64,000 bases of DNA from an uncultured Bacteroidota bacterium. Its GTDB lineage: Bacteria; Bacteroidota; Bacteroidia; Chitinophagales; Chitinophagaceae. Positions 25,594 through 55,880 of the stretch are shown here, piece after piece. The translations under genes were made by a program, and so were the position numbers. Numbering within the stretch: position 1 is the stretch's first letter; each line of letters begins with the position of its first letter. Below the pieces are notes generated by a model. That model saw only the letters and a program-made list of their open reading frames with translations. It did not search any database and was not told the origin of the DNA. The DNA lies in NCBI GenBank assembly GCA_963782125.1, contig CAWAID010000008.1:114795-178794 (forward strand), in the 5' to 3' direction.

Positions 25594-25657
25594 CGCAGCC
25601 CGGTAGCGCACTTGCATGGGGTGCAAGGGGTCGCTAGTTCGAATCTAGTCGTCCCGA
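25584..25657 (+). tRNA. tRNA-Pro (anticodon GGG)
   Basis: Cloverleaf by eye: acceptor CGGGACG/CGTCCCG, D arm GCGC..GCGC, anticodon stem CTTGC/GCAAG with loop ATGGGGT, T arm GCTAG-TTCGAAT-CTAGT. Confidence 0.75.
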
Positions 25658-25670
25658 CACAATACCAGAG

Positions 25671-25898: not shown

Positions 25899-26036
25899 CT
25901 GACGAGAATGTTGAACTCTTTGCTATTATTGATTGGTGAGGATGCCTATCGCCAATTTTAGAAAATTTCAGGAAAATATCTTACCTCATTTCTATATTTT
26001 TCCGTTATTTGCCTTTTTATTGCAAAATCGCAAAAA

Positions 26037-27316
26037 ATGGTTCTTGAATTCTCGATGGGTAATTTCCGGTCGTTCAATCAAATCCAGAAGCTGGATTTTA
26101 CTGCGACTAAACTCGTATCCGAGGACAAGGAAGTTGATGCTAGGAATATTGTCGAAGAATTGGGAACTAGAGTCCTAAAGACTATTGCTATTTATGGCCC
26201 AAACGGAAGTGGAAAATCAAATCTAATAAAGGGATTCTCGACTTTTAGAGACTTAGTTGATCGTTCGTTAGAATCGGAAGCAATAATGACTTTTGCGGCT
26301 GATCCATTCCGACTTTGTAGCGCCGAACCAGACAATGCCGGTTTTTACCAAATTCTTTTGTTGATTGAGACAAAAAAATACCGCTATGGATTTACGCTAA
26401 CGCCGAGTGGCTCGTACAGCAAGAGTGGTTATTTGGTCCAGCTGAAAAAAATGAGACATGGTATTTCAAGCGTAATGGACAAGATGTAAGATCTAATGAG
26501 GAATGGTTTACCGAAGGGGTTAACTTGCCCATTTCCAAATTGCGTGATAATACTCTGTTTATAACCTTTGTATCGGCGTATGACGGTACTATCTCCAGTT
26601 CAATCAGAAGTTTTTTAGCTAACAAAATCACAATTGAACAAGTTGATTTCTTTAGAAGTTCATTGGATAGGAAGAAGAAGAGGTTGTCATATAATCCAAA
26701 TAAGGTCACTAATGACCTTTATCGCTCACTAGGAAAAGAGGTCGTCTTAAAGTGGCTGGGGTATGGGGGACTGACATATAGTGGAGTTAGTATAGATGAT
26801 AGTTCAGAAGATGAAGAACGGGTACTTTTAGAGAAAAATATTTATGATAAGGAGGGGCGCATAAATGGTAAAACGCTGATGTCCCTTAGAGAGAATGAGT
26901 CCGCAGGAACTAACAAATTCTATTCATACATAGGATGGATATACAAAAAATTTGAGGAGGGCGGGCTGTTCATTTCAGATGAAATAGATAATAATTTTCA
27001 TCCTTCGCTTTTAAGACGACTGATAAATTTCTTTAACGATAAAGAGATTAATACTGCAAACGCGCAACTTCTTTTTACTAGCCATGACACAACATTGATG
27101 CAGCCCAATACCCTTCGACGTGATCAGATCTATTTCACGGAAAAATCTTCGAAGGAAGAATCGGTTCTTTATTCACTTTCGGATTTGAAAGGAATAAGAA
27201 ACAATGCCGATTTTGCGCGTCAGTATTTAGCCGGGTTTTACGGAGCAATCCCCATTTTAGAGGGGTATAGAGAGATGAGCAATCCTGATCTTGAATTCAA
27301 ATCTAAGCCAGAATAA
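26037..27316 (+). pseudogene. AAA_21-type ATPase (AbiLi/RloA-like abortive-infection ATPase), frameshifted near 26400
   Basis: Walker A GPNGSGKSN. Frame 0 is good through YRYGFTL and frame 2 from EWLVQQEWLF onward. Walker B LFISDEIDNNFH sits in the second part. Confidence 0.7.
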
Positions 27317-27318
27317 AT

Positions 27319-28062
27319 ATGCAGGACGCTTGGGATTTGCAGCCTCCGGTTGTACGCGAAGTGGATGAAACTGAAACCTTTATTTTGTTTGGAGAGGACG
27401 AGGTAAATGAACCGTCATATTTTCTTGATCTGCAAGTAGAAAAAAAAGTAAAAATTAATTTCGTCGAAGACCAAAAAAGCGGTTTCCAGAATTATGTAAA
27501 TGCGGTTGCCTACTGCTTGAACAATGGCCTCATGGAAACGGTTAACAACGTCACCGCCTTAAAGGCGGGGATTACCCAACATATTTGGTGTGTTTATGAC
27601 AGAGATTGTGAAGAGGAAAATTTTCAGAACATTCCGGCTGCGAAAAATCACACATTTGATTTAGCAATCCAATCTGGGCTGGCATCAGGTTTGAAAGTTG
27701 CATGGAGCAATGACGTATTTGAACTTTGGATTTTACTACATTTTGAAGATGTAACTCCAGGAGTCTGGCGACATAGAACGTATGTCTATGACCGTTTGAC
27801 CCAGATTTTTCGTGATTTGCCCAATCAGACAGAAGAAATGGCCCAAGAAACTTCTAAGCCACGCTTTAATTACAAAGGCTGGATGAAGCGCAAGAAGAAT
27901 TTTATTCTCTTTGTGCGGCCATTACTTAAAGAAAGACGGGCAGATGCTATCCAGAGAGCCAATCAGTTAGAAGCAGCCTTTCCTGCCAATGCTGATTTTC
28001 ACAAGCGTAATCCATGTACGCAAATTCATCATTTGGTTCAGAGTATAATGTCTTTCTACTAA
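27319..28062 (+). CDS. RloB-like (AbiLii-like) protein
   Basis: N-terminal TFILFGEDEVNEPSYFLDL resembles the RloB motif ilvcEGekTEpnYF; follows the AAA_21 ATPase directly. Confidence 0.55.
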   Translation: MQDAWDLQPPVVREVDETETFILFGEDEVNEPSYFLDLQVEKKVKINFVEDQKSGFQNYVNAVAYCLNNGLMETVNNVTALKAGITQHIWCVYDRDCEEENFQNIPAAKNHTFDLAIQSGLASGLKVAWSNDVFELWILLHFEDVTPGVWRHRTYVYDRLTQIFRDLPNQTEEMAQETSKPRFNYKGWMKRKKNFILFVRPLLKERRADAIQRANQLEAAFPANADFHKRNPCTQIHHLVQSIMSFY

Positions 28063-28167
28063 TAGATTCAGTCTAAATCCTTTTTCAAAAATTGTTGAAC
28101 AACTTTTATTGCCTGAAAAAATTCAAGCAGCGAGTTGACATTTTGTCCGCTGGCTCCGCCACATTAA

Positions 28168-28200
28168 CAAAACCTGCGTTTAGCGCAGGTTTTGTCGTTG
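28168..28200. terminator. Bidirectional hairpin aaaacctgcg-ttta-cgcaggtttt
   Basis: Perfect 10-bp stem flanked by an A-run and a T-run. Confidence 0.5.
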
Positions 28201-28249
28201 AAATGTCCCCTCTGTTCCAATTGAAGTGAGACATCGTTATTGTTGGATA

Positions 28250-28286
28250 TTATCCACGAAATACTTAATTTAGTCGGAAATATCCA
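28250..28286. promoter_or_regulatory. Inverted repeat TTGGATATT-N19-AATATCCAA immediately upstream of hipB (operator candidate)
   Basis: 9-bp arms with a GGATA/TATCC core reminiscent of HipB operators; ends 3 nt before the hipB ATG. Confidence 0.45.
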
Positions 28287-28288
28287 AC

Positions 28289-28582
28289 ATGAAAAGCAAA
28301 AAGGCTATTGTCTTTCCTGCACACATGAAGCTGTTGCAGCAAATGGGGGAAAATATCAAGCTGGCAAGAAAGCGCCGCAAGCTAACCAGCGTGCAAGTTG
28401 CTGAAAGAGCGGCCATCAATCGCTCAACACTGGTAGAAATTGAAAAGGGAAATCCAAGTGTTTCTATGGGAGCCTATTTCAACACATTGCGCGTGTTTAG
28501 ATTGCAAAACGATATTCTCAAACTGGCCGCTGACGATGAATACGGAAGGAAACTCCAGGACCTCGCTCTAATTGCTAAGTGA
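28289..28582 (+). CDS. hipB: HipB-like XRE-family HTH antitoxin
   Basis: LTSVQVAERAAINRSTLVEIEKGNPSVSMGAY HTH_XRE; overlaps the hipA start. Confidence 0.8.
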   Translation: MKSKKAIVFPAHMKLLQQMGENIKLARKRRKLTSVQVAERAAINRSTLVEIEKGNPSVSMGAYFNTLRVFRLQNDILKLAADDEYGRKLQDLALIAK

Positions 28583-29835
28583 TGGCGTCAAAGAAGACCG
28601 ACATATTTGTCTATGCCGACTGGATAGGCTTGAGTGAGCCTACGCTTATTGGCATTCTTTCTGCTCAGCAAGCTAAAAGCAGAAAGGCATTCAGCTTTGC
28701 CTATGATAAAAGCTGGATTCAGTCAGATGCGCAACGATTGCTTGACCCGGATATCCAATGGTTCACCGGTGCGCAGCATCCGGCGGGAAAGGAGAATTTC
28801 GGTGTTTTCATGGATTCCATGCCGGATACATGGGGGCGGAAACTGATGCTGCGCAGAGCCGCACTGCAGGCGGCTGCCGAAAGTAAACCGGCTCTAAGCC
28901 TCTATGATATAGATTTTCTTCTCGGAGTCTTTGATGAAACCAGGATGGGCGCACTGCGCTTTAAGTTGAAGCCCGATGGGCCATTTTTGGATAACAACCC
29001 CTCACTCCCAACTCCGCCATGGTCTACCATCCGGGAATTGCAATATGCCGCGGCAGCCGTTGAATCTGATAAAGAGTCTGCGGAAATCGCGAAATACATG
29101 GCTATCCTGATTGCACCCGGCTCATCACTTGGCGGAGCACGACCGAAGGCCAATATCCTGGACGATGATGGAGCCTTCTGGATAGCCAAGTTTCCGGCAA
29201 GGGCCGACATTACCGATAAAGCAGCTTGGGAATACCTCGCATACAAGCTAGCAGTGCAAGTGGGCATCAATATGTCTGAGTGCCGTCTTCAGCAGATCAG
29301 CGGACCATATCAGACATTTTTTACCAAGCGCTTCGACAGGCAAGGAAGAGAGCGCATCCACTTTGCGTCCGCGATGACTATGACCGGGAATAATGAAGAC
29401 CTGCTTAAGGATAATCCCGCGAGCTATCTGGACATTGCTTTGTTCATTCAAACTTATGGTTGCAAGATCACTGAAGACCTGCGACAGCTATGGCGCAGAA
29501 TTGTGTTCAACATAGCCATTTCGAACACAGATGATCACCTAAGAAATCATGGCTTTATACTTACGGACAACGGCTGGCGTTTGTCCCCGGCTTATGATAT
29601 CAATCCTTCTACATACAAATCAGGTCTGCAGATCAGCATTGATACAGATAACAATGCACTTGATTTTGAGTTGGCAAAATCCGTTGGTGCTTATTTTCAG
29701 CTTTCCAGCGATGAGATGAACGTAATTATCTCAGAAGTATTCGAAGCAGTAAAGAACTGGAAAAGCATCGCCGCAGAAATTGGTATTGCAAGAAATGAAA
29801 TCGAACAGATGTCAGCGGCTTTTTACGTTGCTTAA
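28579..29835 (+). CDS. hipA: HipA-family serine/threonine kinase toxin
   Basis: HipA N-terminal region, SLGGARPKANI and ISNTDDHLRNHGF catalytic motifs. Confidence 0.85.
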   Translation: MMASKKTDIFVYADWIGLSEPTLIGILSAQQAKSRKAFSFAYDKSWIQSDAQRLLDPDIQWFTGAQHPAGKENFGVFMDSMPDTWGRKLMLRRAALQAAAESKPALSLYDIDFLLGVFDETRMGALRFKLKPDGPFLDNNPSLPTPPWSTIRELQYAAAAVESDKESAEIAKYMAILIAPGSSLGGARPKANILDDDGAFWIAKFPARADITDKAAWEYLAYKLAVQVGINMSECRLQQISGPYQTFFTKRFDRQGRERIHFASAMTMTGNNEDLLKDNPASYLDIALFIQTYGCKITEDLRQLWRRIVFNIAISNTDDHLRNHGFILTDNGWRLSPAYDINPSTYKSGLQISIDTDNNALDFELAKSVGAYFQLSSDEMNVIISEVFEAVKNWKSIAAEIGIARNEIEQMSAAFYVA

Positions 29836-33378: not shown

Positions 33379-34404
33379 ATGTCTGTAAACAAACTAGCCC
33401 TGATCCGCTACAAGACCATTGACGACTGTTTGACCAACCGCCGTCGTAAGTGGACGCTTGAGGATCTCATTGAAAAAGTATCCGCCGCACTCTATGAGAC
33501 CGAAGGCATTGCCAGAGGCGTGAGCCGCCGTACTGTGCAGGCAGACATCCAGCTGATGCGCTCCGACAAGCTTGGCTACAAGGCCCCAATCATCATTAGA
33601 GACAAGAAGTACTACTGCTACGAAGAAGCGGACTACAGCATCACCAAGGCTCCGATCAATAGTGCCGATGTGGAGAAGATGAGAGACATAGTAGGCGTCC
33701 TGAAGCAGTTCAATGGCTTCTCCTATTTTGATGACATGAGCGAGATGATCGCCCGCCTGGAAAACAATCTTTACAAGTCTACCAATCAAAGCCGCAATTA
33801 CATTCAGCTGGAAGGCAATCACCTGCTGAAGGGACTGGAGCATATCACACCATTGTACCAGGCCATTCTCCACCAACGGCCGCTACTCATCGAGTACAAA
33901 TCGTTCAAGGCTCAGAAATCGGGGCAGGGTATCTACTATCCTTATCTGCTAAAGGAGCACCGCAACCGCTGGTTTCTTATAGCGAGGCCTAAGAAGGGCA
34001 AGACGCTAATGACGTTGGCGCTGGACAGGATGATCGAGTTTCAGGAGCTCACCAAAGAGCCTTTTGTACCGCATCAAGGCGTTGACTTCGACCGCTATTT
34101 CAGCGAAACGATTGGCGTAACAAAGAACGAAACCGACAGGGCGCACAGGGTGATCCTCCACATAAGTAAAGATCATGCGCCCTATGTGCTTACTAAACCG
34201 CTGCATCAGTCGCAGACGCTATTAAAGGAAGACGAGCTGGGTGTTATCATTAGGATAGATGTCGTGCTGAATTTTGAGTTGGAGCGGGAGATACTTGGGT
34301 TCGGGGAATGTGTTAAAGTGCTTGCCCCGCGCTTGCTTGCTTCGCGAATCAAAAAGAGGTTTGAAAAAAGTATTGCGCGTTACCAGGAAGCGGGAGTGAA
34401 ATAA
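33379..34404 (+). CDS. BrxR/CapW-like wHTH-WYL transcriptional regulator
   Basis: N-terminal RRKWTLEDLIEKV...VSRRTVQADIQLMR wHTH and central NRWFLIAR WYL-type motif; ~340 aa. Confidence 0.6.
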   Translation: MSVNKLALIRYKTIDDCLTNRRRKWTLEDLIEKVSAALYETEGIARGVSRRTVQADIQLMRSDKLGYKAPIIIRDKKYYCYEEADYSITKAPINSADVEKMRDIVGVLKQFNGFSYFDDMSEMIARLENNLYKSTNQSRNYIQLEGNHLLKGLEHITPLYQAILHQRPLLIEYKSFKAQKSGQGIYYPYLLKEHRNRWFLIARPKKGKTLMTLALDRMIEFQELTKEPFVPHQGVDFDRYFSETIGVTKNETDRAHRVILHISKDHAPYVLTKPLHQSQTLLKEDELGVIIRIDVVLNFELEREILGFGECVKVLAPRLLASRIKKRFEKSIARYQEAGVK

Positions 34405-34577
34405 CCTAACTGCTGCTGGAATACATGCATGGTTGAATCATTATTACGCAACTAAGGCAAGAGCGGTATGCTGGCACAAGGCACTTATTATCTGCTTTAA
34501 AAAGTGAGTACTAAGCCGAATATTGGTTTTACAAGCTTAGACAGACATTTGGATAACTTTACGTAAAAACATTTAAT

Positions 34578-34895
34578 ATGGAGTTTAATGCGTACCAGGA
34601 AAAAGCGAAACAGACCATTCAAAAAAATGTTTCAGAAGATAAATTATCGGGAATTGTTCCCTTTTTAGGCATCATTGGGGAGATCGGCTCGGTAGTAACC
34701 CAACTAAAAATTAAGTTTAGGGATGGAGATTCATATGTTGCATTCAAGGAAAAGCTCAGTGAAGAATTAGGCGATGTTCTTTGGTATGTTTCGACAATAG
34801 CTACTCAAAATGAATTGCTGCTTGAAGATATTGCCGGCCAGAACCTGCTCAAAATCCACGATCGCTTTCTAGTTGACGATGTTTCTAGAGTATAG
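34578..34895 (+). CDS. MazG-like all-alpha NTP pyrophosphohydrolase domain protein
   Basis: EELGDVLWYVSTIA matches the MazG EExGD motif. Confidence 0.6.
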   Translation: MEFNAYQEKAKQTIQKNVSEDKLSGIVPFLGIIGEIGSVVTQLKIKFRDGDSYVAFKEKLSEELGDVLWYVSTIATQNELLLEDIAGQNLLKIHDRFLVDDVSRV

Positions 34896-35463
34896 AGATT
34901 TTGATGAATCTCACCCAAGAGCATCAAGGTTTCCGGAAGAATTTGAGATAGAGTTTGTGAGCTATGAAGAAGAAGGCAAAAACAAGATTAAAATCGTCGA
35001 TAAGCGAAATAATCAATTAATCGGAGACCCCTTGACAGACAATACATATGAGGATGATGGCTATCGGTTTCACGATATTTTTCATTACGGATACTTGGCA
35101 GTCCTTGGGTGGTCGCCGGTTCTTCGTAAACTATTGAAGATAAAAAGAAAGAGCAATGCTAAGATAGACGAAAATGAGGATGGGGCTAGATCACAGATAA
35201 CTGAAGAGTTGATTTCACTCTACATTTATCATCATGCAGTTGATCACGATTTGTTGAAGTATAGCACGAGTGTAGATTCCGGAATAATTAAAAAGGTCCA
35301 GAGTCTCGCGAAGAACACCGAGGTGAATAAATGCAGCGGTAAACAATGGGAGAAAGCGATTCTAAGTTCTTATGGGATTTTTAACCAGCTTAGGGAAAAC
35401 AACGGTGGAAGAGTGCTAGTTAGCAAGAAGAATAGATCCCTTCTTTATTTAGGAAAGAAATGA
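34873..35463 (+). CDS. Hypothetical protein (overlaps the MazG-like ORF; possibly its frameshifted C-terminal extension)
   Basis: ORF overlaps the previous gene by 23 nt in the +1 frame; no known domain. Confidence 0.35.
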   Translation: MTMFLEYRDFDESHPRASRFPEEFEIEFVSYEEEGKNKIKIVDKRNNQLIGDPLTDNTYEDDGYRFHDIFHYGYLAVLGWSPVLRKLLKIKRKSNAKIDENEDGARSQITEELISLYIYHHAVDHDLLKYSTSVDSGIIKKVQSLAKNTEVNKCSGKQWEKAILSSYGIFNQLRENNGGRVLVSKKNRSLLYLGKK

Positions 35464-35650
35464 GCTCTTGGATACTTATCTGTCTTCGAGATTAAGTCCT
35501 ATTAGTCTCAATAAGACAATGGCTTCCACAGATTAGAAACATACAATCTTGAAGGGACTATAGGGATTCGGACAGCTAACAGATAACAAAGGATGTATTC
35601 CTTTTGACACAGAAATAAAATCAATCGATCGCAGAGATTACATCGGCAGA

Positions 35651-36679
35651 ATGATATTTGAAAATAGCAACGTGACAATATTAACTAAGAAGTCGAAGCC
35701 TCATGCGAGTATAGTGCACGACACCTACTGGAAGTTCTCCGCGGAACGCCAAGAGATTTTTTTTAAGAAATTGGACGGCAAAGCGGCTCCTTGGACTGAC
35801 GACATAATACTCCTTGAGAACAAGTTCACAAACGTATATCGTGCCGCAGATCGAGTTAGTCAGTTCCTCATTAAACATGTAATATATGAAGGGCCTCAGG
35901 AGTCGGCAGAAATACTATTCAGAATCCTTCTATTCAAAACCTTCAATAAGATTGAAACATGGAAATTGCTTCAGAGTAAACTGGGGTCGATCTCGTGGGC
36001 CGAATATTCATTTAATCGGTATGCCGATATATTAAAACAGGCAACGGCCTTCGGAGAGGCAATCTATTCAGGGGCTTATATCATGGCCTCCGGTAAGAGT
36101 TCGTTCGGATATGCTCGAAAATATGAAAATCACTTAAAGCTTATCGAACGAATTCTGAATGATGAGTTGGACAAGAGAATTATTGACTGCTCTTCGATGC
36201 AAAAAATCTACGAAACGCTAATCACCTATCCGACTATTGGAAAATTCCTTGGTTATCAGTATACCATTGACATCAACTATAGCATACTGACGAATTTTAG
36301 CGAGATGGATTTTGTAGTACCTGGGCCAGGTGCTACCGATGGCATTCGAAAATGCTTTCTTTCTTTAGGCGATTATAGCGAAGCCGACGTCGTGAAATTC
36401 ATGGCCGACTCTCAAGAACTGGCATTTGAGAAACTCGGTTTGAAATTCAAAACTTTATGGGGCCGGCCGCTTCAATTAATCGACTGCCAGAATATATTTT
36501 GCGAGGTTGATAAGTATTCTCGTGTAGCCCACCCAAATATTGGGGGAGTATCTGGTCGAAAGAGAATAAAACAGAAATATCAAACAAATGGGAAGCTGCC
36601 TGTTCCATGGTATCCTCCTAAATGGGGAATAAACTCAAAAATTGAACATCATGCAGAAGGCATCGAACATCTTCATTAG
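35651..36679 (+). CDS. Hypothetical protein, first gene of the Thoeris-like operon (possible nucleotide-modification/aGPT-Pplase-like family, uncertain)
   Basis: Motif PWTDDIILLENKFTNVYRAADRVSQ recalled as similar to phage nucleotide-hypermodification Pplase-like domains. Overlaps the next ORF. Confidence 0.3.
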   Translation: MIFENSNVTILTKKSKPHASIVHDTYWKFSAERQEIFFKKLDGKAAPWTDDIILLENKFTNVYRAADRVSQFLIKHVIYEGPQESAEILFRILLFKTFNKIETWKLLQSKLGSISWAEYSFNRYADILKQATAFGEAIYSGAYIMASGKSSFGYARKYENHLKLIERILNDELDKRIIDCSSMQKIYETLITYPTIGKFLGYQYTIDINYSILTNFSEMDFVVPGPGATDGIRKCFLSLGDYSEADVVKFMADSQELAFEKLGLKFKTLWGRPLQLIDCQNIFCEVDKYSRVAHPNIGGVSGRKRIKQKYQTNGKLPVPWYPPKWGINSKIEHHAEGIEHLH

Positions 36680-37136
36680 TCATAATGGTCTTGACGACGC
36701 ACATGTCCAATCATTAAAAGACCGGTTGAGGAACCAAGGGTTCAATGTGCGTAATTTCTCGGTTGACAGTACTAACCACAAAGATGGACGGCGACCTTCT
36801 GATGAAGTTATTCGTAGACTTTTGAGTATGAGAGTCAAATGGTCTAGTACGCTCATTTGCTTAATCGGTCCGGAAACGCACAAAAGCGGTTGGGTAAATT
36901 ATGAAATCAGAAAAGCATACTTAGAGGGGAAGCCAATTGTTGGGATTTATACACATGGAAGTAAGAATTCCGTTGAACTACCAGAAGCATTTAAGAAGTA
37001 CGGACAATCGCTCATTGGATGGAATTCTGTAGAGAAACTCGGCGAGATTGTCATTGGGAAAAATGTTCCTAATGAGAATCCCGACGGAACAATGGCAAAA
37101 CCAATACATAAACTAAAGCGAGTTACTACCTGCTAG
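36651..37136 (+). CDS. thsB: TIR-like (DUF1863) ThsB-like protein 1
   Basis: IFISHNGLDDAHVQSL...SGWVNYEI pattern of the TIR-like DUF1863 domain. Confidence 0.6.
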   Translation: MQKASNIFISHNGLDDAHVQSLKDRLRNQGFNVRNFSVDSTNHKDGRRPSDEVIRRLLSMRVKWSSTLICLIGPETHKSGWVNYEIRKAYLEGKPIVGIYTHGSKNSVELPEAFKKYGQSLIGWNSVEKLGEIVIGKNVPNENPDGTMAKPIHKLKRVTTC

Positions 37137-37137
37137 T

Positions 37138-37773
37138 ATGCAATTCTATTCCTACCTTATAGATCACGATTACGGTTTAGCTCCGAATCCCTTCGGACAA
37201 TATTGTACGCTTGCTGTTTGCAAGCCGCAGATAAGAAAAAGCGGATTGCTACGCATATCGGACTGGATATTTGGGACCGGCTCTAAAGCTTTGGAAGATG
37301 TTACGCATGGAAAATTTGTGCATCGTCTTGTTTATGCTATGCAGGTCAATGAGATTCTTCCTTTAGATAAGTATTGGGATGACCCTTGATTCCAGTACAA
37401 AAAGCCAGTAATTAATGGAACGCTAATTACCATGTACGGTGATAATTTTTACCATAAAAATGAAAATGGCGATTGGACACAAGAAAATTCGGCACACTCA
37501 AACCTAGACGGCTCCGTCAATCAAGACCATCTAAATACTGACGTAGGCGGGAAAAATGTACTCATCGGGCAGCGCTATTATTATTTTGGGGCAAGCGCTC
37601 CGCTACTACCAAACCAGCTATGGAACATCTGCTACGATAGGCAAGGCGTGAAGAAGATACAGGAAGAGCCCGGCAAGAGTTTAATAACTTGGCTAGAGGC
37701 CAAATATCGACAGGGCGGGATTTACGGAGAGCCTGCGAATTGGGTAGAGTACAACCAACAAACCCTTTTCTAA
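37138..37773 (+). pseudogene. Unknown ~210-aa protein interrupted by an in-frame TGA at 37387-37389 (ORFs 37138-37389 and 37432-37773 share one frame)
   Basis: The same frame is open across the single TGA; conserved-looking N-terminus HDYGLAPNPFGQYCTLAVCKP. Confidence 0.5.
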
Positions 37774-37813
37774 CCGCAGGCAATCATCGCCTATATAGAG
37801 AAATCCCCTACTA

Positions 37814-38362
37814 ATGGCAATATTTACGAAGTCTCAATTTGAGTCAATAGCAAAGTCAAGAACTGGTTTAGCCGACTTCAAAGCGGTCAACATGTTTGAA
37901 AGCCGCAAGTTTTCCAAGTCTAGTTCAACAACAAGCATTTTCCTTTCCCACTCTCACGTCGATCAAGTAGTAGTAGCACAAGCAAAGGGCTTTTTTGAGA
38001 CCCTTGGGATTAGCATTTACATTGACTGGGCCGATGAAACTATGCCAGAAAAAACAAACGGGGTTACCGCGTCAAGAATAAAGTCAAAAATTCTTAGCAA
38101 TGATAAGTTTATCCTGTTAGCAACAAATGCAGCCGTGTCTTCTAAGTGGTGTAACTGGGAGGTCGGCATTGGAGACGTATATAAATTAAATTCTGACAAA
38201 ATCTGCATACTCCCGCTTGCGGATAACAATGCAACATGGCTCGGCAATGAGTACCTGCAAATCTATCCAAGAGTAGAGCCGGTTGAGAACTACAGCAACA
38301 TTTTTAGGGTAATTTACCCAGATGGAAAAGTCGACTGGCTTCACGAATGGCTAAAAAAGTAA
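37814..38362 (+). CDS. thsB: TIR-like (DUF1863) ThsB-like protein 2
   Basis: IFLSHSHVDQVVVAQ...SKWCNWEVGIG TIR-like signature. Confidence 0.65.
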   Translation: MAIFTKSQFESIAKSRTGLADFKAVNMFESRKFSKSSSTTSIFLSHSHVDQVVVAQAKGFFETLGISIYIDWADETMPEKTNGVTASRIKSKILSNDKFILLATNAAVSSKWCNWEVGIGDVYKLNSDKICILPLADNNATWLGNEYLQIYPRVEPVENYSNIFRVIYPDGKVDWLHEWLKK

Positions 38363-39612
38363 TCATGGAATTCACCAGTCAACAAAAGACCTTTATAAAT
38401 GTTTACGCGGCCGAAATCTTAAATGGCGATGCGGCAATTTTTGCCGGCGCTGGGCTGTCAGCTTCTTTAGGTTTCGTGAATTGGAAAGAACTATTAAAGG
38501 ATTTAGCCGATGAGCTCAATTTGAAAATTGAGAAGGAGCACGATTTGATCTCTGTGGCCCAATATCATTTCAACAAGTTCAAAAGAGGCAAAATAAACAC
38601 TAAGATCATCAATGAGTTTACCAGCCTTTCTGTGGGGAGCGAGAATCACAAAGTCCTTTCTCGAATTGGGATTGATACTTTTTGGACAACAAATTATGAC
38701 CAGCTCATTGAAAGAACTTTAGAAGCAGAAGGTAAAACCGCAGAAAAGAAGGTCCGGAACGAAGATTTTTCAAGAAACATCAAAAAGAAAGATGCAGTTG
38801 TCTACAAGATGCATGGGGACAAAGATTCACCGGATGAAGCAATCCTAACTAAGGATGACTACGAAACCTACAACGACAAAAAAGAATTATTTTCTACAGC
38901 ACTTAGGGGAGATTTGCTGTCAAAAACTTTTCTATTTATTGGGTTCAGCTTTGATGATCCGAACCTGGACTACATACTGGGTAGAATAAAGGTGCTATTG
39001 AAAGATAACACCCCAACACACTACTGTTTTTTCAGAGAAATTGCTGAGAAAGACTTCAGCGATCCTAAAAAGACAGCGGAAGAGAACAAAGAAGACTATC
39101 TCTATGCGAAAATTAAGCAGACGCTAAAAATAGATGATTTGGTCAGGTATGGAATTCATGCTATTATGGTGAAGGAGTATACTGAGATCACTGACATTCT
39201 TTTTGAAATAGAAAAGCGGGTGAAGAGAAAGAATATTTTCATTTCCGGTGCCGCCTGCACCTATGATCCATTTTCCGAAGAGCAAGCCAAAGACCTAATC
39301 CATTCATTGAGTTTTAAGCTAGCCGAAAAGGAGTATAAGATTGTATCAGGTTACGGCACTGGAATAGGCAGCATTGTTATTAACGGAGCCCTAGACTTTA
39401 AGTTGAACTCAAAATTTCGGAATCTAGATGATTTGCTAATCCTTAGACCGTTTCCCCAAATACAATCGGGAGGAGCAAGAATAAAAGATGTATGGACGCA
39501 ATATCGAATTGAAATGATTTCAAAAGCAGGAATTGCAATTTTTGTCTTTGGAAATAAGAGACTAGAAGACGGAACGGTTGGCAATTCAGATGGTATGTTG
39601 GAGGAATTCTAG
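38347..39612 (+). CDS. thsA: Thoeris ThsA (SIR2 domain plus SLOG domain), ending at an in-frame TAG
   Basis: SIR2 motifs IFAGAGLSASLGFVNW, TTNYDQL and YKMHGD; SLOG ISGAACTYDP...VSGYGTGIG. Confidence 0.75.
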   Translation: MAKKVIMEFTSQQKTFINVYAAEILNGDAAIFAGAGLSASLGFVNWKELLKDLADELNLKIEKEHDLISVAQYHFNKFKRGKINTKIINEFTSLSVGSENHKVLSRIGIDTFWTTNYDQLIERTLEAEGKTAEKKVRNEDFSRNIKKKDAVVYKMHGDKDSPDEAILTKDDYETYNDKKELFSTALRGDLLSKTFLFIGFSFDDPNLDYILGRIKVLLKDNTPTHYCFFREIAEKDFSDPKKTAEENKEDYLYAKIKQTLKIDDLVRYGIHAIMVKEYTEITDILFEIEKRVKRKNIFISGAACTYDPFSEEQAKDLIHSLSFKLAEKEYKIVSGYGTGIGSIVINGALDFKLNSKFRNLDDLLILRPFPQIQSGGARIKDVWTQYRIEMISKAGIAIFVFGNKRLEDGTVGNSDGMLEEF

Positions 39613-39828
39613 TTGTGCCTACAAAATAATGTTATCCCTGTGCCTATCGGCACTACTGGCTCTGTCTCAAAACAATTATGGAACAAAGTCGTTGAAAATT
39701 TGGGCACGTTTTATCCCCAAAGCGATGACTTACATGATGCTATTAAAGAGCTAGGAGTAGACGGGCTTGCAATAGATGACATTATCACTAACACGATAAA
39801 AGCAATCGGTATTTTGCAAAAATCATAG
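39613..39828 (+). CDS. thsA: C-terminal remainder of the ThsA SLOG domain, in frame after the TAG stop
   Basis: NVIPVPIGTTGSVSKQLWNKV continues the SLOG fold; same reading frame as 38347. Confidence 0.55.
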   Translation: MCLQNNVIPVPIGTTGSVSKQLWNKVVENLGTFYPQSDDLHDAIKELGVDGLAIDDIITNTIKAIGILQKS

Positions 39829-39970
39829 TCATGGTCGACGCTTAACCATGCCATCGTAAATAATCCTAGCATGTTTCACTTAGCGAGTTAGGCATTGAGA
39901 CTTTCTACGTTCTTTGTTCAAGGAAACGTCGAGATTTAGGTAGATAGACAATTGGTTCAATGGTACTCAC

Positions 39971-40153
39971 ATGACGATATTTGGTGTCAATATTTGGGAA
40001 ATAGCATTTTTCGTGCTACTTGTTGGAATAATGATCACCATCCTCCCAATCATTTTTGCGTTCAGGAAGAAGATAAACCTTGACACACCAAAGTATTGGT
40101 TTAAAGAAGCCGATTTCCTTGGGCAAGAAAAAAGAAAGACTTATCGCCAATGA
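39971..40153 (+). CDS. N-terminal TM segment of a SLATT-like 2TM protein (frameshift at A6 run ~40128)
   Basis: One TM helix; ORF ends just after caagaaaaaagaaag, where the next ORF frame takes over. Confidence 0.4.
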   Translation: MTIFGVNIWEIAFFVLLVGIMITILPIIFAFRKKINLDTPKYWFKEADFLGQEKRKTYRQ

Positions 40154-40562
40154 AGGACGCATACATGGGACATTGCTATACTGGAAAAACCAAGCTGCAG
40201 CTCATAAAAAGCTACACGATGCAAATATTTTTTGGGGATTGCTGTCTTCAGTAAGCTTACCAGTGCTAGTTCAATTTTACGATAAGGACAATTTGTGGGC
40301 TACAGCTTTCATGACTGTATTGACGTTTTGGACAGGCCTAATTTTCGCAATTGCCTTTACGCTAAAATCTGAATCTAAATATCAAGGGTTCCGAGCATCA
40401 GAATCTGATTACTATGATATAACTCGCATCTTATTGGATACTCCGGAAAGAGAACCTATCAAGCTAAAAACTCTGGTGAACGATTACATTGAGACAGTAG
40501 AAAAGATTAGAAAAATGGCTAGACGAGTTGAGACAGGCATACCACCATCGATTAAATTATAG
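40080..40562 (+). CDS. SLATT-like two-TM effector domain protein
   Basis: Two TM helices separated by a short loop; sits between ThsA (SLOG) and a TIR gene, as described for SLATT. Confidence 0.5.
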   Translation: MTHQSIGLKKPISLGKKKERLIANEGRIHGTLLYWKNQAAAHKKLHDANIFWGLLSSVSLPVLVQFYDKDNLWATAFMTVLTFWTGLIFAIAFTLKSESKYQGFRASESDYYDITRILLDTPEREPIKLKTLVNDYIETVEKIRKMARRVETGIPPSIKL

Positions 40563-40645
40563 GCAATAGCAGCTGAACGCGTATATTCTCAGAAGAACAG
40601 TTAGACTCTTCAAGTAGCAATCTAAATCCTATAAGGAACAATCCT

Positions 40646-41137
40646 ATGGCAAGACGAGTATTTTTTAGCTTCCACTATGAAAATGACGTGTGGAGGGTGA
40701 ATGTTGTAAGAAATAGTTGGGTTACTCAACATGGAAATGAAGCAGCAGGCTTCATTGATGCTGCTGCATTTGAGGAAGTAAAGAAGAAGGGCGACACCAA
40801 CATTAAGAATTGGATTGATAGTCAGCTTTCAGGGACGTCCGTCACTGTCGTTCTTATAGGATCACAGACAAATCAACGAGACTACGTAAAATACGAACTC
40901 TCAAAAAGCTATCAAAAGGGAAATGGAATTTTAGGCATCTACATTCATGGCATAAAGGATATAAACGGTAACATCTCTGTAAAGGGTTCAAACCACTTTG
41001 GTGAAATAGGGAAAGACGAGAAAGGGAATTCTGTCTACTTGAGCTCAAATTATCATTGCTATGATTGGATTGCGGACGATGGTTATAATAACTTGGGAGG
41101 TTGGATTGAGCAAGCGGCAAAAAGCGCTTCAAAATGA
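40646..41137 (+). CDS. thsB: TIR-like (DUF1863) ThsB-like protein 3
   Basis: VFFSFHYENDVWRVNVVRN hallmark of DUF1863/ThsB. Confidence 0.7.
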   Translation: MARRVFFSFHYENDVWRVNVVRNSWVTQHGNEAAGFIDAAAFEEVKKKGDTNIKNWIDSQLSGTSVTVVLIGSQTNQRDYVKYELSKSYQKGNGILGIYIHGIKDINGNISVKGSNHFGEIGKDEKGNSVYLSSNYHCYDWIADDGYNNLGGWIEQAAKSASK

Positions 41138-42141
41138 ACAGCACGACAATTGCGGAATTACAAATAGAGTATAATAAAAAACTCCCTCTCTTCCATCGAG
41201 CATTAAAAAATACGGTCGATGCCCTTGAACTGTTCATGGAAGAGCATAACATTTTGCATTTGGTGATAACTGGAAGAATCAAATCGTTTGAATCATTCGC
41301 ACAAAAGGTTGACAGAAAAAATTATAAAGACCCTTTTGTTGAAAATGAGGATTTCTGTGGAATCAGAATTATTGTCTTTTACCCGAGCGACATAAATGCT
41401 GTTCAGGAAATTATTGACACTGAATTTCAGATTGTTGAATCATTTGACAAAGTTGACTCACTAGAGGCGAATGAGTTTGGCTATCGATCGAAACACTCAA
41501 TAGTTATGATTAAGGATGAGTGGCTGAGCAGCCCTAATTATCGGAGTTTACAAGGAGTAAAAATCGAAATTCAGGTAAGGACAATTCTGATGCATGCTTG
41601 GGCTGAAATAGAACATAAGCTTGCCTACAAAAATGCGAACCAAATTCGTAAGGATGTCAAAAGACAACTTGCTAGAATCAGTGCTCAACTCGAAACAACG
41701 GATGAACAGTTTCAGAATCTTAAAGACAGTATTCAGAGCTACCAAGACGACATTAAACTAAGCGTACAAATTAGTAAAGCAGTACCTGCCACCGCAGATT
41801 TAGACTATGACAGCGTAAACGCTCTTCTCGAATACTACTTGCCGGACCTTCCTAATAATCGTGGGAATTTAATAAGAGTAATGGAGAGGCTGGCTAATAA
41901 TCACTACAGCCTGTCCAAAGTGGAAGAATTACTTAAGAAAATAAGGCCCTACATACTTGCCATTAATGAAGCGGTCTTTCCACGGAAGGAGTTATCCTTG
42001 ACTCGCGCCACTATCCTCGGCTACGCGATGGACATTTTTGAGGGCTATGATTCAAGTCCAACTGTGGCTTATTCCGAAACTCGGCGAACTGTTGTCGAAG
42101 CATTCAGGAAAATAGTTTCGGAAGTAAATGACGGAAGCTAA
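41134..42141 (+). CDS. RelA/SpoT-domain nucleotide pyrophosphokinase (toxSAS/CapRel-like) with ~150-aa C-terminal extension
   Basis: GRIKSFESF, CGIRIIVFYPSD, YRSKHSIV and EIQVRTILMHAWAEIEHKLAYK RSH synthetase motifs. ATGA overlap with thsB3. Confidence 0.75.
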   Translation: MNSTTIAELQIEYNKKLPLFHRALKNTVDALELFMEEHNILHLVITGRIKSFESFAQKVDRKNYKDPFVENEDFCGIRIIVFYPSDINAVQEIIDTEFQIVESFDKVDSLEANEFGYRSKHSIVMIKDEWLSSPNYRSLQGVKIEIQVRTILMHAWAEIEHKLAYKNANQIRKDVKRQLARISAQLETTDEQFQNLKDSIQSYQDDIKLSVQISKAVPATADLDYDSVNALLEYYLPDLPNNRGNLIRVMERLANNHYSLSKVEELLKKIRPYILAINEAVFPRKELSLTRATILGYAMDIFEGYDSSPTVAYSETRRTVVEAFRKIVSEVNDGS

Positions 42142-42230
42142 GCATTTTTGAAAGCGAACCTCTTCAAAGTAGGTTTACTCTCTACTAGATACTAATTGCA
42201 CACCGATGAGCTCCTTGTCTTGCAGAAGCA

Positions 42231-42551
42231 TCAGAAAGGCTTCACGGGTACCGCACCTATCGTATCGCATCGAGCCGTAGCCAAAAGCAAACCGAAACTA
42301 TCGGCTTCATCAATTTTAAGGTGGAGACTTTGCAATTTTCTGTTTGCCCCCTCACTAAGCATGTTATCGAAAAATGGGAACAAATAAGGACTGCGATATT
42401 CCTGCTGCGTCTTAGGAAGCGTAAGACTGACGGCCGGGAACCTTTTATCCCGGTAGAAACTATCATCATATCGAAATACATAACTATTGCGAGACTCCTC
42501 TGTTAGGATTCCAGCTACGACCCTATTTCTAAATACGATTGCTTTTCTCAT
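42231..42551 (-). pseudogene. Orphan HipA N-terminal domain fragment (no kinase core downstream)
   Basis: VFRYDDSFY...FPFFDNMLSEGANRKLQ...DTIGAV matches the HipA N-subdomain. The next gene is the plus-strand RSH gene. Confidence 0.6.
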
Positions 42552-42707
42552 TGATCATCTGCTGATTTTTACCTACAGACACAGTTCCAAAACAGGTAGA
42601 ATTTTTGCGACGTTTGTCCGTGGTATTTCACACTACTATAATAAGGCGATCCGCCTTATCGACGACAACCAATTTCCAATCGGCCGTGCGTCTGTTCATG
42701 TTCAAGG

Positions 42708-51899: not shown

Positions 51900-53456
51900 T
51901 TAAGACTTGTTGTAATACTGTTCTCCTCTGATGTTGTCGTGTGCCGGCATCGTGAGCTGCTGCAGCTCATCTTCATCCTGCTGCGTATCCAGTCCTTTTT
52001 GCAGAATGCGCTCTATGATCTTGTAGTTATAGATGCCATAGCCTAAAGCCCGCTGGCAGGCTTTGATCAGCCGCTCATTGCCGACCTTTTTGGCGAAGCT
52101 TAAGATGCCCAGACAGGATTTATACGCCTGTTCCGGATGCTGTTTGCGATCCAGAACTTTCTGGATGTAGACCACTACGTCCGGGTCTATATCAGCAGCC
52201 CAGCTCAGGAAGCGCTGTGGCGTCCATTCTGTAACGAAGCGATGGGCGGAGGCCAGATGATCCGGGTCTGTAGTATAATGAAACGAACTCTTCACCCGGT
52301 TGTGGAGGGCAATGCGCTCGTAGCCGCTGTAGATCTCCACCGTCTTGTTGCTATAAAGAAGCTTTACTTTTTTGCCGATGTACTTGTACGGAACGCTGTA
52401 GAAGTGGCGATCGGCTCCAAGGGTCACATGCCCGTTCTTCATCACGGTGGCAAAGCTGGATTGCTTGATCTCGAAGCGTGTCGCGGGTAGCGGCATGAGT
52501 GTGCTGCGCTCCACTTCTTCAAATTGCTGGCGGCGGCTGTAGCTGCGGCCTTTTAAGTGGGCGTTGTTGTGCACCTCAAGCGCTTGCAGAATGGCTACAT
52601 TAAGTGCTTCCAGTGTTGTGAATCGCTGATCACGGAGCTTGCTGTAGATGCGCGCGTAAACGATTTTTACGGCATTCTCCACATGCGCCTTGTCTTTGGG
52701 GCGATAGGCTCTGGCCGGCAGGATGGTGGTGCCGTAATGCTCTGCAAACACAGCGTAGCTCTCATTCAAAACCGGCTCGTACTTACTGCTTTTGGTTACT
52801 GCGCTCTTCAGGTTGTCAGGAACAATAGCTGCCGGCACGCCGCCGATGAAGTGAAGGGCACCTTCGCAAGCGCCAATAAAATCTTCTTTCTGCTGACTCA
52901 TTACAGCCTCTACGTAGGTGAGCTGGCTGGCGCCCAGAATGCCTACGAACACTTCTACCGGCTTTAGCTCTCCGCTTTCCGGGTCGGTAATGTGGAGCTT
53001 GTCGCCGGCGAAGTCAACATATAGCTTGTCGCCGGCCTTGTGGTCTATGCGCATCGATGGATTGACGCTTGCTTTCCACTGCCTGTAGTAAGTGTTGAAC
53101 TGGCTTAGGCACAGGCCTTCCGGATTGTCCCGCCGATATTGTTCCCAGAGCACCTGACGGGTAGCGCCTTTGCGCTTCAGCGCTTTATCTATATCGGGAA
53201 ACAGGCTGTGCAACTGTGCTACCCGTTCGCTGGAGGGTGCAACTTGTGGCTTGATGAACAGGTCCTCCAGGTCTTTATCGCTGAGGGTATCAAGCTCTTT
53301 GAAGCTCAATCCGCTGTCAGTGAAAGCCTGGAAGTACCGCTTTAATGTATTGCGGGAGGTGCCGGTTTGTTCGGCGATGAGGCGCTTGCTTCGTCCCTGG
53401 TCGAGCAGGCGTAAGGCGTGTCTGATCCTGGTCATGCTTATCGGATTATTGGCCAT
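51900..53456 (-). CDS. istA: IS21-family transposase IstA
   Basis: N-terminal HTH followed by an rve-type DDE domain; 518 aa, immediately upstream of istB. Confidence 0.9.
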   Translation of the reverse strand: MANNPISMTRIRHALRLLDQGRSKRLIAEQTGTSRNTLKRYFQAFTDSGLSFKELDTLSDKDLEDLFIKPQVAPSSERVAQLHSLFPDIDKALKRKGATRQVLWEQYRRDNPEGLCLSQFNTYYRQWKASVNPSMRIDHKAGDKLYVDFAGDKLHITDPESGELKPVEVFVGILGASQLTYVEAVMSQQKEDFIGACEGALHFIGGVPAAIVPDNLKSAVTKSSKYEPVLNESYAVFAEHYGTTILPARAYRPKDKAHVENAVKIVYARIYSKLRDQRFTTLEALNVAILQALEVHNNAHLKGRSYSRRQQFEEVERSTLMPLPATRFEIKQSSFATVMKNGHVTLGADRHFYSVPYKYIGKKVKLLYSNKTVEIYSGYERIALHNRVKSSFHYTTDPDHLASAHRFVTEWTPQRFLSWAADIDPDVVVYIQKVLDRKQHPEQAYKSCLGILSFAKKVGNERLIKACQRALGYGIYNYKIIERILQKGLDTQQDEDELQQLTMPAHDNIRGEQYYNKS

Positions 53457-53675
53457 CAGGGCTAAGTTTTTAAGAAACTTAACCTAGACTGCCTCCGCCT
53501 AAAGCATCAGCTCAAATCTTACTTCCGGGTGGGTCAGTTTGCACCGGCGAGGGTGGGTCAGTTTGGACCGGCGCAGGTGGGTCAGTTTGAATCATCCTGG
53601 GTGGGTCAGCTTAAATCGGCGCGGGTGGGTCAGTTTGACCGTTCCCTCCAGTGGGGCAAGCTGCGTGAGCTAAAG

Positions 53676-55880
53676 ATGATTGCTTTGCAGGCAATGTCAG
53701 AAATGCCTCTCGGCGAGCAGGACGGTTTTATCAAAGCATACTTTAAGGCAAGCAACTTTGAGGAAATACTTGCGCTTCTTCACGAGACTTTTGGCGAAAT
53801 CCAGCGCATAAGATTTCCCAATCTACCTGAAGACAAAATTGAGCTCCATCCTGCCATGCAGGCGTTTGCCGAAGAAACCTTGAAGGCACAAGTCGCTGGT
53901 TTAAGCGAAGAGCAGAAAGCAGTTTATGATGCGCCGCTGGGCCAGCATATTTCTGTTATTGCCGGGCCAGGCTCTGGCAAGACGCATACACTTGCTTTAC
54001 GCGTAGCTCGCCTCATCCAGCAAGAAGACGTGTCCGCGGCAGATATTCTGGTCGTTGCCTACAATCGCGCAGTAGTAACTGAGCTAAAAGCGCGGCTGCA
54101 ACAAACCTTTCGTGCGTTAGGGTATCAGGATATTACAAAGCCGTTGCGCATCTGCACCTATGCGGAACTTGCGCTCAAGTTAAACCCAGATATAAGGAAG
54201 CAGCCCTTTAAGACAATTGAAGAACCGAATGTATGGGAGCGCGACCTCTGCAATAGACTGCAGGACAACCCCGCTCATGCGCTGATGCGGTTGGGCGCAG
54301 TGAAGTATTTATTGGTGGACGAGTTTCAGGACGCCACAGAGCTACGAATAGAAATTCTATCACGGCTTATAAAGCTGAGCGATGGCAAGCTGTTTGTAAT
54401 CGGCGACCCTAATCAAAGCATTTATGGCTTTGAACGAACTGCTGCTGGTTCGGCGATTGACCCATTGCCTTATTACGAATTGCTAGAAAAAGTATTTAGC
54501 CCATTAGCGCACTATGCGCTGACGCAAAACTTTCGATCTATGCCGGCAATTGTAGCAGCCAGCAATGAGCTTATATCACATTGGATACCACGCTACCAGG
54601 GATTGAAGCCGCTGGTCACAAAGCGGGAGCCGTTCCCAAATATGCCACGGGAATATTGTACGATAAGGCATCATGCAGAAGGCCTGCGTTGGTGGGATGA
54701 ACTTAAGAAATTGCTAGTTGAAACAGGTGACGAGTTGCAAAAAGGCGACAAACGTGAGCCTCAACGCTATCGGCAGATTGCTATTCTGTTCCGTAGCAAC
54801 AATGAGGTTTTCAGGGCAAAGGCAAGACTTTCTGAGGCTGGAATTGCAGGCATCCGGATACGCGTGCAGGGGAATCAGCCCACCGAGTTTATGCGCTTTC
54901 GCGAATGCCACTTCTTCCTACATAAGTATGCGCAAGAGGCGGCCCGTGAAACGCCTATACCAAACGATTTCCGTGACCAAATCAATAAGCTGATAACGGA
55001 ACAAAAGATAGCCTGCCCGGCATGGAACCAATTCTACTTATCAGTTGTTCATGCTCTCGTGCTGCAATATTTAGACGATGCGCCCGAGGATATACAGAAT
55101 ACTTACACGGCCCTATGCGACCACATCTGCGAAAGCACGCGGCGCGATGATGGGCAGCTTTGGAAGGTGTATGAAAAGTATAAGGACTTTGTTGACCCAG
55201 GCATGAATGAGACTGAAGTATTGCTAACAACAATGCACCGGGTTAAAGGTCTTGAGTTTGATGCCGTAATAGTGCCTCCGTCGTTCTCGGAGTTGCCGTT
55301 CATGCCCGGCACCGAAGATGAAGCAGTGATTCATGACCTTATAGACGAAGAGCGAAGGCTGATGTACGTTGCGTATTCGCGGGCAAAGTACCGGCTAGTA
55401 GTGATTCAGGGGGAACGCGAAGCCGCACTGCTAAGTCAGATACAGTACACGCCAGATGACAAGGTGGTAGGGCAAATTGGGCGGCCACTTAAGGATGGAT
55501 TAAAAGATGTAAATATTAGTTGGGGCGCAAAGGCTTTTTGCTTTTCCGGAAACGCTGCTCACGGTATTCTTTCCAACAACGAAATAGGACTAAGGGTGGG
55601 TGCGGGAGAACGGGTTACGCTAATTAGAAGGGTCAACAATTTTGGTACATTTTACGAGGTAAAAAATAGCTCTGCGCAACATATTGCGACGCTGTCACAA
55701 AACGCCGTTGCCGCCCTCACGGAACCAAAATATGATGGCATTTATGTAAACGAAGTAATTGTCTGGACAGAAGAATCAGCTGCAACCGCGGGATTTGCAG
55801 ACCAGTGGTGTGAAGAAGCCAGAACCCAGGGTTATATTTATGTTGTTGCCCTTGCAGGCTATAGCAAGCCTGTTGCCTGA
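53676..55880 (+). CDS. UvrD/Rep-like SF1 helicase
   Basis: Motifs AGPGSGKTHT, LLVDEFQDAT, VIGDPNQSIY, HRVKGLEFD and VAYSRAKYRL. The ORF upstream of MIALQ is just translation of the IS repeats. Confidence 0.8.
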   Translation: MIALQAMSEMPLGEQDGFIKAYFKASNFEEILALLHETFGEIQRIRFPNLPEDKIELHPAMQAFAEETLKAQVAGLSEEQKAVYDAPLGQHISVIAGPGSGKTHTLALRVARLIQQEDVSAADILVVAYNRAVVTELKARLQQTFRALGYQDITKPLRICTYAELALKLNPDIRKQPFKTIEEPNVWERDLCNRLQDNPAHALMRLGAVKYLLVDEFQDATELRIEILSRLIKLSDGKLFVIGDPNQSIYGFERTAAGSAIDPLPYYELLEKVFSPLAHYALTQNFRSMPAIVAASNELISHWIPRYQGLKPLVTKREPFPNMPREYCTIRHHAEGLRWWDELKKLLVETGDELQKGDKREPQRYRQIAILFRSNNEVFRAKARLSEAGIAGIRIRVQGNQPTEFMRFRECHFFLHKYAQEAARETPIPNDFRDQINKLITEQKIACPAWNQFYLSVVHALVLQYLDDAPEDIQNTYTALCDHICESTRRDDGQLWKVYEKYKDFVDPGMNETEVLLTTMHRVKGLEFDAVIVPPSFSELPFMPGTEDEAVIHDLIDEERRLMYVAYSRAKYRLVVIQGEREAALLSQIQYTPDDKVVGQIGRPLKDGLKDVNISWGAKAFCFSGNAAHGILSNNEIGLRVGAGERVTLIRRVNNFGTFYEVKNSSAQHIATLSQNAVAALTEPKYDGIYVNEVIVWTEESAATAGFADQWCEEARTQGYIYVVALAGYSKPVA

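Follow-up and report, generated by a model that had tools for sequence, protein, structure and literature searches.

The locus considered here raises a simple question: why does the start of the gene for an alarmone synthetase overlap the stop codon of the gene for a TIR protein? It is located in a 64,000-nucleotide stretch of DNA from an uncultured Bacteroidota bacterium of the Chitinophagaceae (GenBank assembly GCA_963782125.1, contig CAWAID010000008.1, positions 114,795 to 178,794 of the forward strand); the whole of this stretch was analyzed and is called the window. The RelA/SpoT-type (RSH) gene (41134-42141, + strand) has an intact open reading frame (ORF) and encodes a small alarmone synthetase of 335 amino acids (aa). 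Its ATG (41134-41136) shares letters with the TGA stop (41135-41137) of the upstream TIR gene, tcaaaATGAacagc; this overlap, which a preliminary description of the locus had pointed out, is borne out in AAAATGAAC and supports translational coupling. Our answer starts from the identity of the upstream genes: just ahead of the TIR gene lie thsA and a further thsB, so that the RSH gene closes a type I Thoeris locus.

The Thoeris locus and the conservation of the ThsB-RSH pair

The upstream gene (40646-41137, + strand) encodes a 163-aa protein, TIR163, that matches Pfam ThsB_TIR (2.2e-25), PADLOC ThsB1 (8e-69), and PDC-M50B (9.4e-64), as well as the structures of Bacillus cereus MSX-D12 ThsB (6LHY/9B7D; E = 3.8e-41). 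The 'YE' glutamate, E84, is aligned with the ThsB glutamate and is conserved in all of the copies examined; we take it to be the catalytic residue. By sequence, TIR163 is a canonical Thoeris ThsB, and its family is large (at least 7983 matches among 8000 scored candidates, many at ~70% identity). The second thsB (37814-38362, + strand; 182 aa, TIR_2-type, with matches to Pfam TIR_2 and to PADLOC ThsB1 at 1.8e-60) overlaps the start of thsA by 16 nt, as in locus L176, and this gene order is common to L083 and L176; thsA itself (38347-39828, + strand) encodes a SIR2-STALD/SLOG protein (Pfam SIR2_2 and STALD; PADLOC ThsA1, 1.8e-173). The pairing of TIR and RSH genes that the preliminary description reported therefore stands, but the pair is not free-standing: its TIR is a canonical ThsB, with ThsA and a second ThsB upstream. 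Scans for promoters and terminators over 37500-42700 returned matches at chance level and were uninformative.

Is the adjacency coincidental? The RSH family yields 665 word-index matches and ~2600 50%-identity clusters at E <= 1e-30; the neighborhoods sampled were 160 loci from genomes and metagenomes, plus the contigs of individual proteins (loci are designated by L numbers). A TIR163-type ThsB is located immediately upstream of the RSH in 11 of the 12 loci in which the RSH identity is at least 50%, that is, the window, L001, L002, L047, L082, L083, L162 (partial, at a contig edge), L163/164, L165/166, L171, and L176. For RSH relatives with less than 47% identity, five types of TIR were sought and none was found in 133 upstream and 125 downstream flanks. 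Comparing close with distant relatives, Fisher's exact test gives p = 1e-15, with loci that are phylogenetically related and not corrected for; because the loci are related by descent, this p value is the weaker argument. The stronger one is that the pair persists through divergence: the RSH proteins share 52-88% identity and the TIR proteins 63-91%, and the pairwise identities of one partner agree with those of the other (Mantel r = 0.74, p = 0.002). In the seven loci in which the gap was measured, the TIR163 stop and the RSH start are separated by -4 to +12 nt. The adjacency, for which the preliminary description had allowed coincidence, is thus not by chance, and TIR163 and the RSH are co-inherited.

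The majority of the TIR-linked RSH genes are found in type I Thoeris operons or multi-ThsB arrays. L176 and L083 each carry the four genes TIR(181-188 aa)-ThsA-TIR163-RSH as an operon, which in L083 is flanked by hsdS on one side and hsdM on the other; the window's genes, TIR-ThsA-TIR163-RSH, follow this order too, with an insertion of ~820 bp between thsA and TIR163. Variants are ThsA-TIR-TIR163-RSH (L002) and ThsA-TIR163-RSH-TIR207 (L047), and the order TIR163-RSH-TIR207 is common to L047, L162, and L163. In L001, L163/164, and L165/166, the pair is part of multi-ThsB arrays that contain a TIR390-LD_cluster3 (SLOG) cassette and as many as seven TIR genes; in L171 (4272-6192), it is found in the arrangement PDC-M50A (137 aa, with multiple transmembrane segments)-TIR163-RSH, with no ThsA and no further annotated TIR or SLOG gene within the ±5 kb fetched.

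As an observation on the arrays themselves, Thoeris-like arrays with five to eight ThsB-type TIR genes are found in L001 (3788-8937), L163 (627-7280), L165 (6908-11923), and L168 (4277-8391); a TIR(385-391 aa)-LD_cluster3 cassette (SLOG only) recurs in them, and no SIR2-SLOG ThsA is in view.

The stand-alone relatives of the RSH have no conserved neighbor of any kind that we could find; they are flanked mostly by housekeeping genes (RecA, MetRS, GcpE, IlvD), with AbiH and AAA_15 as occasional neighbors. One such relative (38% identity over 81% of the query) is cargo in a filamentous Vibrio prophage (Tubulavirales, 8.1 kb; PQ189320.1, L177, 6571-7581). In an archaeal metagenome-assembled genome (Ca. 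Argoarchaeum; L077, 7941-9962), the N-terminal part of a 673-aa fusion protein is a member of this RSH family.

The RSH enzyme and its two domains

The assignment of the enzyme as an RSH synthetase, made in the preliminary description from its motifs, is secure. The Pfam RelA_SpoT profile (PF04607) matches residues 47-169 with E = 1.3e-21 and 77.4 bits, above the cut-off of 27. Across 120 RSH homologs, the donor-site and G-loop residues are invariant (R48, K50, K58, D73, R78, Y117, R118, S119, H121, E145, Q147, R149, and T150); S54 and R61 are invariant or nearly so, and the EIQIRT motif is kept. The codon for D73 is located at 41350-41352 and that for Y117 of the G-loop at 41482-41484. For comparison, the ATP-donor, Mg2+, and acceptor-base residues of FaRel2 are R64, K66, S70, K74, R77, D90, R95, and Y128 (PMC11782079); we set the correspondence between the two enzymes by motif order, not by alignment. 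As read from the sequence, the ATP-donor site, the catalytic Asp, and the G-loop Tyr are intact, and the enzyme looks like an active synthetase because its donor, Mg2+, and acceptor-base residues are invariant in the family.

The likeness to CapRel and toxSAS enzymes that had been proposed is not found in the catalytic domain, which is nearer to RelQ/RelP than to CapRel or any toxSAS in both sequence and fold. Among solved structures, the best sequence matches are RelQ/YjbM (1.9e-19) and RelP/YwaC, with alignments that stop near residue 205; the match to CapRel (0.046) is confined to residues 24-211. The AlphaFold model (120 homologs as input; pLDDT 94.4, pTM 0.87) contains the SYNTH fold, a long helix (residues 173-214), and five confident helices in residues 225-334. 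The gene is accordingly divided into a RelQ/RelP-like catalytic (SYNTH) domain with the long α-helix (residues 1-214; 41134-41775, + strand) and an all-α C-terminal domain that is fast-evolving (residues 225-335; 41806-42138, + strand). Judged by sequence and modeled fold, the enzyme is a small alarmone synthetase of the RelQ/RelP type, that is, one that is housekeeping-like.

The C-terminal extension is real, although it is shorter than first described (~120-130 aa, not ~150). The suggestion that it might be the pseudo-zinc-finger domain (pZFD) of CapRel was tested and not borne out; the domain is an orphan five-helix fold with no recognizable relative among solved structures. No pZFD, Tis1, SAH, or Panacea antitoxin domain was detected at the locus, where the neighbor is a ThsB TIR, nor did the flanking ORFs yield SAH or any other such domain. 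Membership in CapRel or in the bipartite toxSAS families (FaRel, FaRel2, PhRel, and Tas1/Tis1) was considered and rejected; the catalytic domain does not cluster with toxSAS. Because two defining features were looked for and neither was found, we place the RSH outside these families.

The two domains have diverged to different extents. The TIR-linked clade shares 48% identity with its stand-alone relatives in the catalytic domain and 19% in the C-terminal domain, for which the identity inside the clade is 45%; the G-loop and donor site are identical between the clade and the stand-alone relatives. Because the catalytic domain is conserved while the C-terminal domain has diverged strongly, we read this as an enzyme whose regulation was re-wired, with its chemistry kept, upon capture by Thoeris.

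A possible role of the RSH in Thoeris and the alternatives

What, then, might the RSH do for Thoeris? Our tentative preference, possible rather than probable, is that it is an accessory effector arm, i.e., a captured clade that, as its sequence suggests, forms a translationally coupled cassette with one type of ThsB. The activation of the RSH, its product, and its role as an effector are the parts of this model that we infer. Upon sensing of the phage, ThsB would make an NAD+-derived signal that activates ThsA; the RSH would be switched on simultaneously, by contact with ThsB or by the signal, with its divergent C-terminal helical domain acting as a regulatory or partner-binding module. With ATP as the donor, the RSH would then pyrophosphorylate a purine nucleotide at its 3'-OH and yield a (p)ppGpp- or (p)ppApp-type product, so that growth arrest and a shutdown of ATP and purine metabolism would be added to the depletion of NAD+ by ThsA; phages would then find it more difficult to evade immunity, for instance, by reconstituting NAD+. 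Cytoplasmic (p)ppGpp-specific synthetases can inhibit growth when active (PMC12691689).

Thoeris corresponds, in bacteria, to the TIR immunity of plants and animals; in the forms described, one effector is paired with a TIR protein that generates the signal. If the accessory-effector model is true, Thoeris has a second enzymatic arm, NAD+-derived TIR signals are joined to RelA/SpoT pyrophosphotransfer, and immunity has taken over a small alarmone synthetase of apparent housekeeping type whose C-terminal domain was re-wired; the RSH could add growth arrest and an ATP/purine shutdown to the loss of NAD+, counter phage strategies against Thoeris, or make a new messenger.

An exhaustive profile search identified one protein, P0336 (1475 aa), in which a TIR-SAVED module (residues 246-674; PADLOC, 3.1e-34) is fused to two tandem RSH domains of this family (~920-1300) and the same type of C-terminal region; by eye, the second RSH copy appears to be without the GYRS motif of the G-loop. 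We regard P0336 as an independent, Rosetta-stone-type hint that TIR and RSH are used jointly in an effector context; it weighs little because it is a singleton from one metagenomic assembly.

Besides that singleton, several observations weigh against the accessory-effector model, whose support is entirely comparative-genomic. The 12 close-relative loci are not independent observations, and one of them, L167, is without a TIR; a remnant was sought upstream of its RSH and none was found. The distant relatives share the two-domain architecture yet go without a TIR, and because the stand-alone relatives manage without one, the enzyme has no intrinsic need of it. The TIR-linked clade is a single 50%-identity cluster (representative P0012), as compared with the thousands of TIR163 proteins, and the RSH-linked copies of ThsB form no distinct sequence group. 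The RSH is an optional, rare insert, always behind the same type of ThsB; L172 has the order TIR180-ThsA-TIR163-TIR207 without an RSH, the arrays of L168-170 also lack one, and because otherwise identical arrays occur without it, the RSH is dispensable for this type of locus. The RSH contains neither SLOG nor Macro, the known gcADPR-binding domains.

The window itself adds to these points. An in-frame TAG in thsA (39610-39612), at a position occupied by Q, D, or E in the homologs, would remove the last ~70 aa of the STALD/SLOG domain, so that by its sequence the window's thsA is probably a pseudogene; thsA is whole in L083, L176, and L002. Because ThsA carries this premature stop, the canonical Thoeris arm may be inactive here and the local system decaying. 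Three neighboring genes in the window, thsA included, are disrupted; the TAG in thsA, a TGA in an Nmad2 gene, and a frameshift in a membrane-protein gene (both described below) may instead be sequencing errors. The low-GC island (~39% GC, as compared with 50-58% in its flanks) thus carries several marks of decay, to which a HipA N-terminal fragment downstream may be added. TIR163 and the RSH are both intact.

Much of this would also be expected of an autonomous, self-regulated single-gene stress or defense synthetase that inserted once behind thsB and was carried along with no functional interaction with the TIR or Thoeris. The stand-alone relatives with the same architecture and no conserved neighbor, the solitary RSH of L167, the relative carried as cargo by the Vibrio inovirus, and the ThsB arrays that lack an RSH are all compatible with such a passenger, and the clade is so small (a single 50% cluster) that a single insertion in an ancestor could account for a large part of what is seen. 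We nevertheless consider a passenger unlikely: the adjacency to ThsB holds down to 52% RSH identity and spans three architectures (ThsA operons, TIR390/LD_cluster3 arrays, and PDC-M50A-TIR163-RSH), the spacing of -4 to +12 nt points to co-translation, TIR and RSH co-diverge, and the TIR-SAVED-RSH fusion is independent of the locus. The short gaps and the start/stop overlap are also typical of toxin-antitoxin pairs; together with the absence of ThsA within 5 kb of the TIR163-RSH pair in L171, and with a pair that is intact in the window while thsA is broken, they might suggest by analogy a toxic RSH that is held inactive by ThsB, as antitoxin and phage sensor, and released on infection independently of ThsA, following the logic of bipartite toxSAS modules or fused CapRel. 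The enzyme, however, is nearer in sequence and fold to the non-toxic RelQ/RelP than to any toxSAS, its relatives (including L167) occur without any partner, TIR163 shows no signature specific to a partner and is a highly conserved ThsB of the generic kind, and the pZFD, Tis1, SAH, and Panacea antitoxin folds were not detected, so we judge such a pair to be quite unlikely.

The obligate adjacency to a signal-producing TIR, together with P0336, which joins RSH domains to a TIR NADase module, could also mean that the RSH modifies the signal, that is, that it pyrophosphorylates ADP-ribose (ADPR), 2'cADPR, or NAD+ at the adenosine 3'-OH and so makes a messenger or an NAD+ sink. Both ADPR and NAD+ derive from ADP and have the unoccupied adenosine 3'-OH that this chemistry would need; 3'cADPR, however, has no free adenosine 3'-O, which counts against it. 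RSH enzymes do use the 3'-OH of adenine or guanine nucleotides, and that of tRNA-A76 as well, as the acceptor of pyrophosphate (PMC11782079). Set against this, neither the catalytic domain nor the G-loop can be told apart from its counterpart in the TIR-less relatives, with no altered acceptor site seen, and the ThsA homologs in these loci resemble ordinary STALD sensors; we think a signal-modifying role about as improbable as a toxin-antitoxin pair. A shade less likely again is the specific claim that 3'-pyrophosphorylation of ADPR, NAD+, or a cyclic ADPR isomer produces immune nucleotides of a new class or drains NAD+ irreversibly; if true, phage sponges and NAD+ reconstitution would be defeated, and TIR signaling and RelA/SpoT chemistry would be one pathway. 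Finally, the RSH could act upstream, with its C-terminal domain, which diverges fast as sensor domains do, sensing a phage cue and its product or the protein itself activating the ThsB TIR. The cues that activate ThsB are poorly understood, which leaves room for such a sensor; since most ThsB163 proteins work without an RSH, the arrangement is without known precedent, and in P0336 the RSH is found alongside effector and sensor modules, we consider it highly improbable.

The surroundings of the locus and comparison with known systems

The interval between thsA and TIR163 is occupied by the gene for a ~195-aa membrane protein (39971-40562, + strand) that is frameshifted into two overlapping ORFs in different frames; its homologs are intact at 194-196 aa. 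These ORFs were considered as a PDC-M50A-like effector of the TIR163-RSH operon and rejected (they are frameshifted and without similarity to PDC-M50A). No TIR is annotated near the homologs in the two contexts examined (L173/L174 and L175), and the gene is probably outside the system. In those contexts, the homologs, which are without a Pfam domain, are followed by a 226-240-aa protein and may be part of a separate two-gene module.

Directly upstream of the Thoeris genes, a nucleotide-modification-type cluster with an embedded TIR (33379-37773) starts with a WYL-WCX regulator and includes MazG_C (34873-35463), a 5-hmdU DNA kinase (HMUDK, 35651-36679), the ThsB-like TIR (36642-37136), and Nmad2 (37138-37773), which is interrupted in frame by a TGA (37387-37389). 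Just downstream of the RSH is an isolated HipA N-terminal (Couple_hipA) fragment (42231-42551, - strand); a full-length HipA-like kinase is encoded at 28579-29835 (+ strand). Farther away are an IS21 transposase (51900-53456, - strand), a UvrD/PcrA-like helicase (53529-55880), and a ZorD-like SNF2 helicase (59657-62491; NCBIfam ZorD, 3.9e-163, below the cut-off). The GC content is 38-45% in two blocks (26000-29000 and 34000-42000) as compared with 50-60% in the flanks; these blocks follow a tRNA-Pro(GGG) gene (25584-25658), consistent with a genomic island integrated at tRNA-Pro. The entire window looks like a large defense and mobile region.

How does the locus compare with systems already described? 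RelQ and RelP (SAS1/SAS2 of Firmicutes) are its nearest enzymatic relatives; the window's RSH differs by the addition of the ~120-aa five-helix C-terminal domain and, whereas RelQ and RelP have a housekeeping context, by its location in a defense island behind a TIR gene. With CapRel it shares a single polypeptide that joins an RSH catalytic domain to a regulatory-looking C-terminal extension, in a defense context. PDC-S33, a PADLOC candidate in which a single gene encodes an RSH, matches the catalytic domain (1.2e-16, 59 bits), but the match covers positions 50-245 of the 349 in the profile; the resemblance is at the level of the family and does not extend to the full length. In PDC-M50 (a membrane protein, A, with a ThsB-like TIR, B), B is matched by TIR163 over its full length, and the window is without A. 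Among the TIR-SAVED effectors of CBASS and type III CRISPR, P0336 joins such a module to the RSH domains of this family; its TIR is an effector NADase under a SAVED sensor and not a ThsB signal generator, so its architecture is non-homologous to that of the window's locus.

There remains type I Thoeris. The upstream ThsB, ThsA, and ThsB are, by sequence, bona fide members, and intact operons are found in L083, L176, and L002; the canonical form has no RSH gene, whereas here the RSH is the fourth gene, behind a ThsB of the B. cereus type, and the window's ThsA has a premature stop. The preliminary description held a coupling of TIR to an alarmone synthetase to be undescribed; in agreement, full-text searches of the literature turned up no account that couples Thoeris or a TIR to an RSH, although an earlier mention in a comparative-genomics survey is possible. 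The comparison suggests that the locus is a type I Thoeris system plus an extra gene, one that may link TIR/NAD+ immunity to alarmone-type chemistry.

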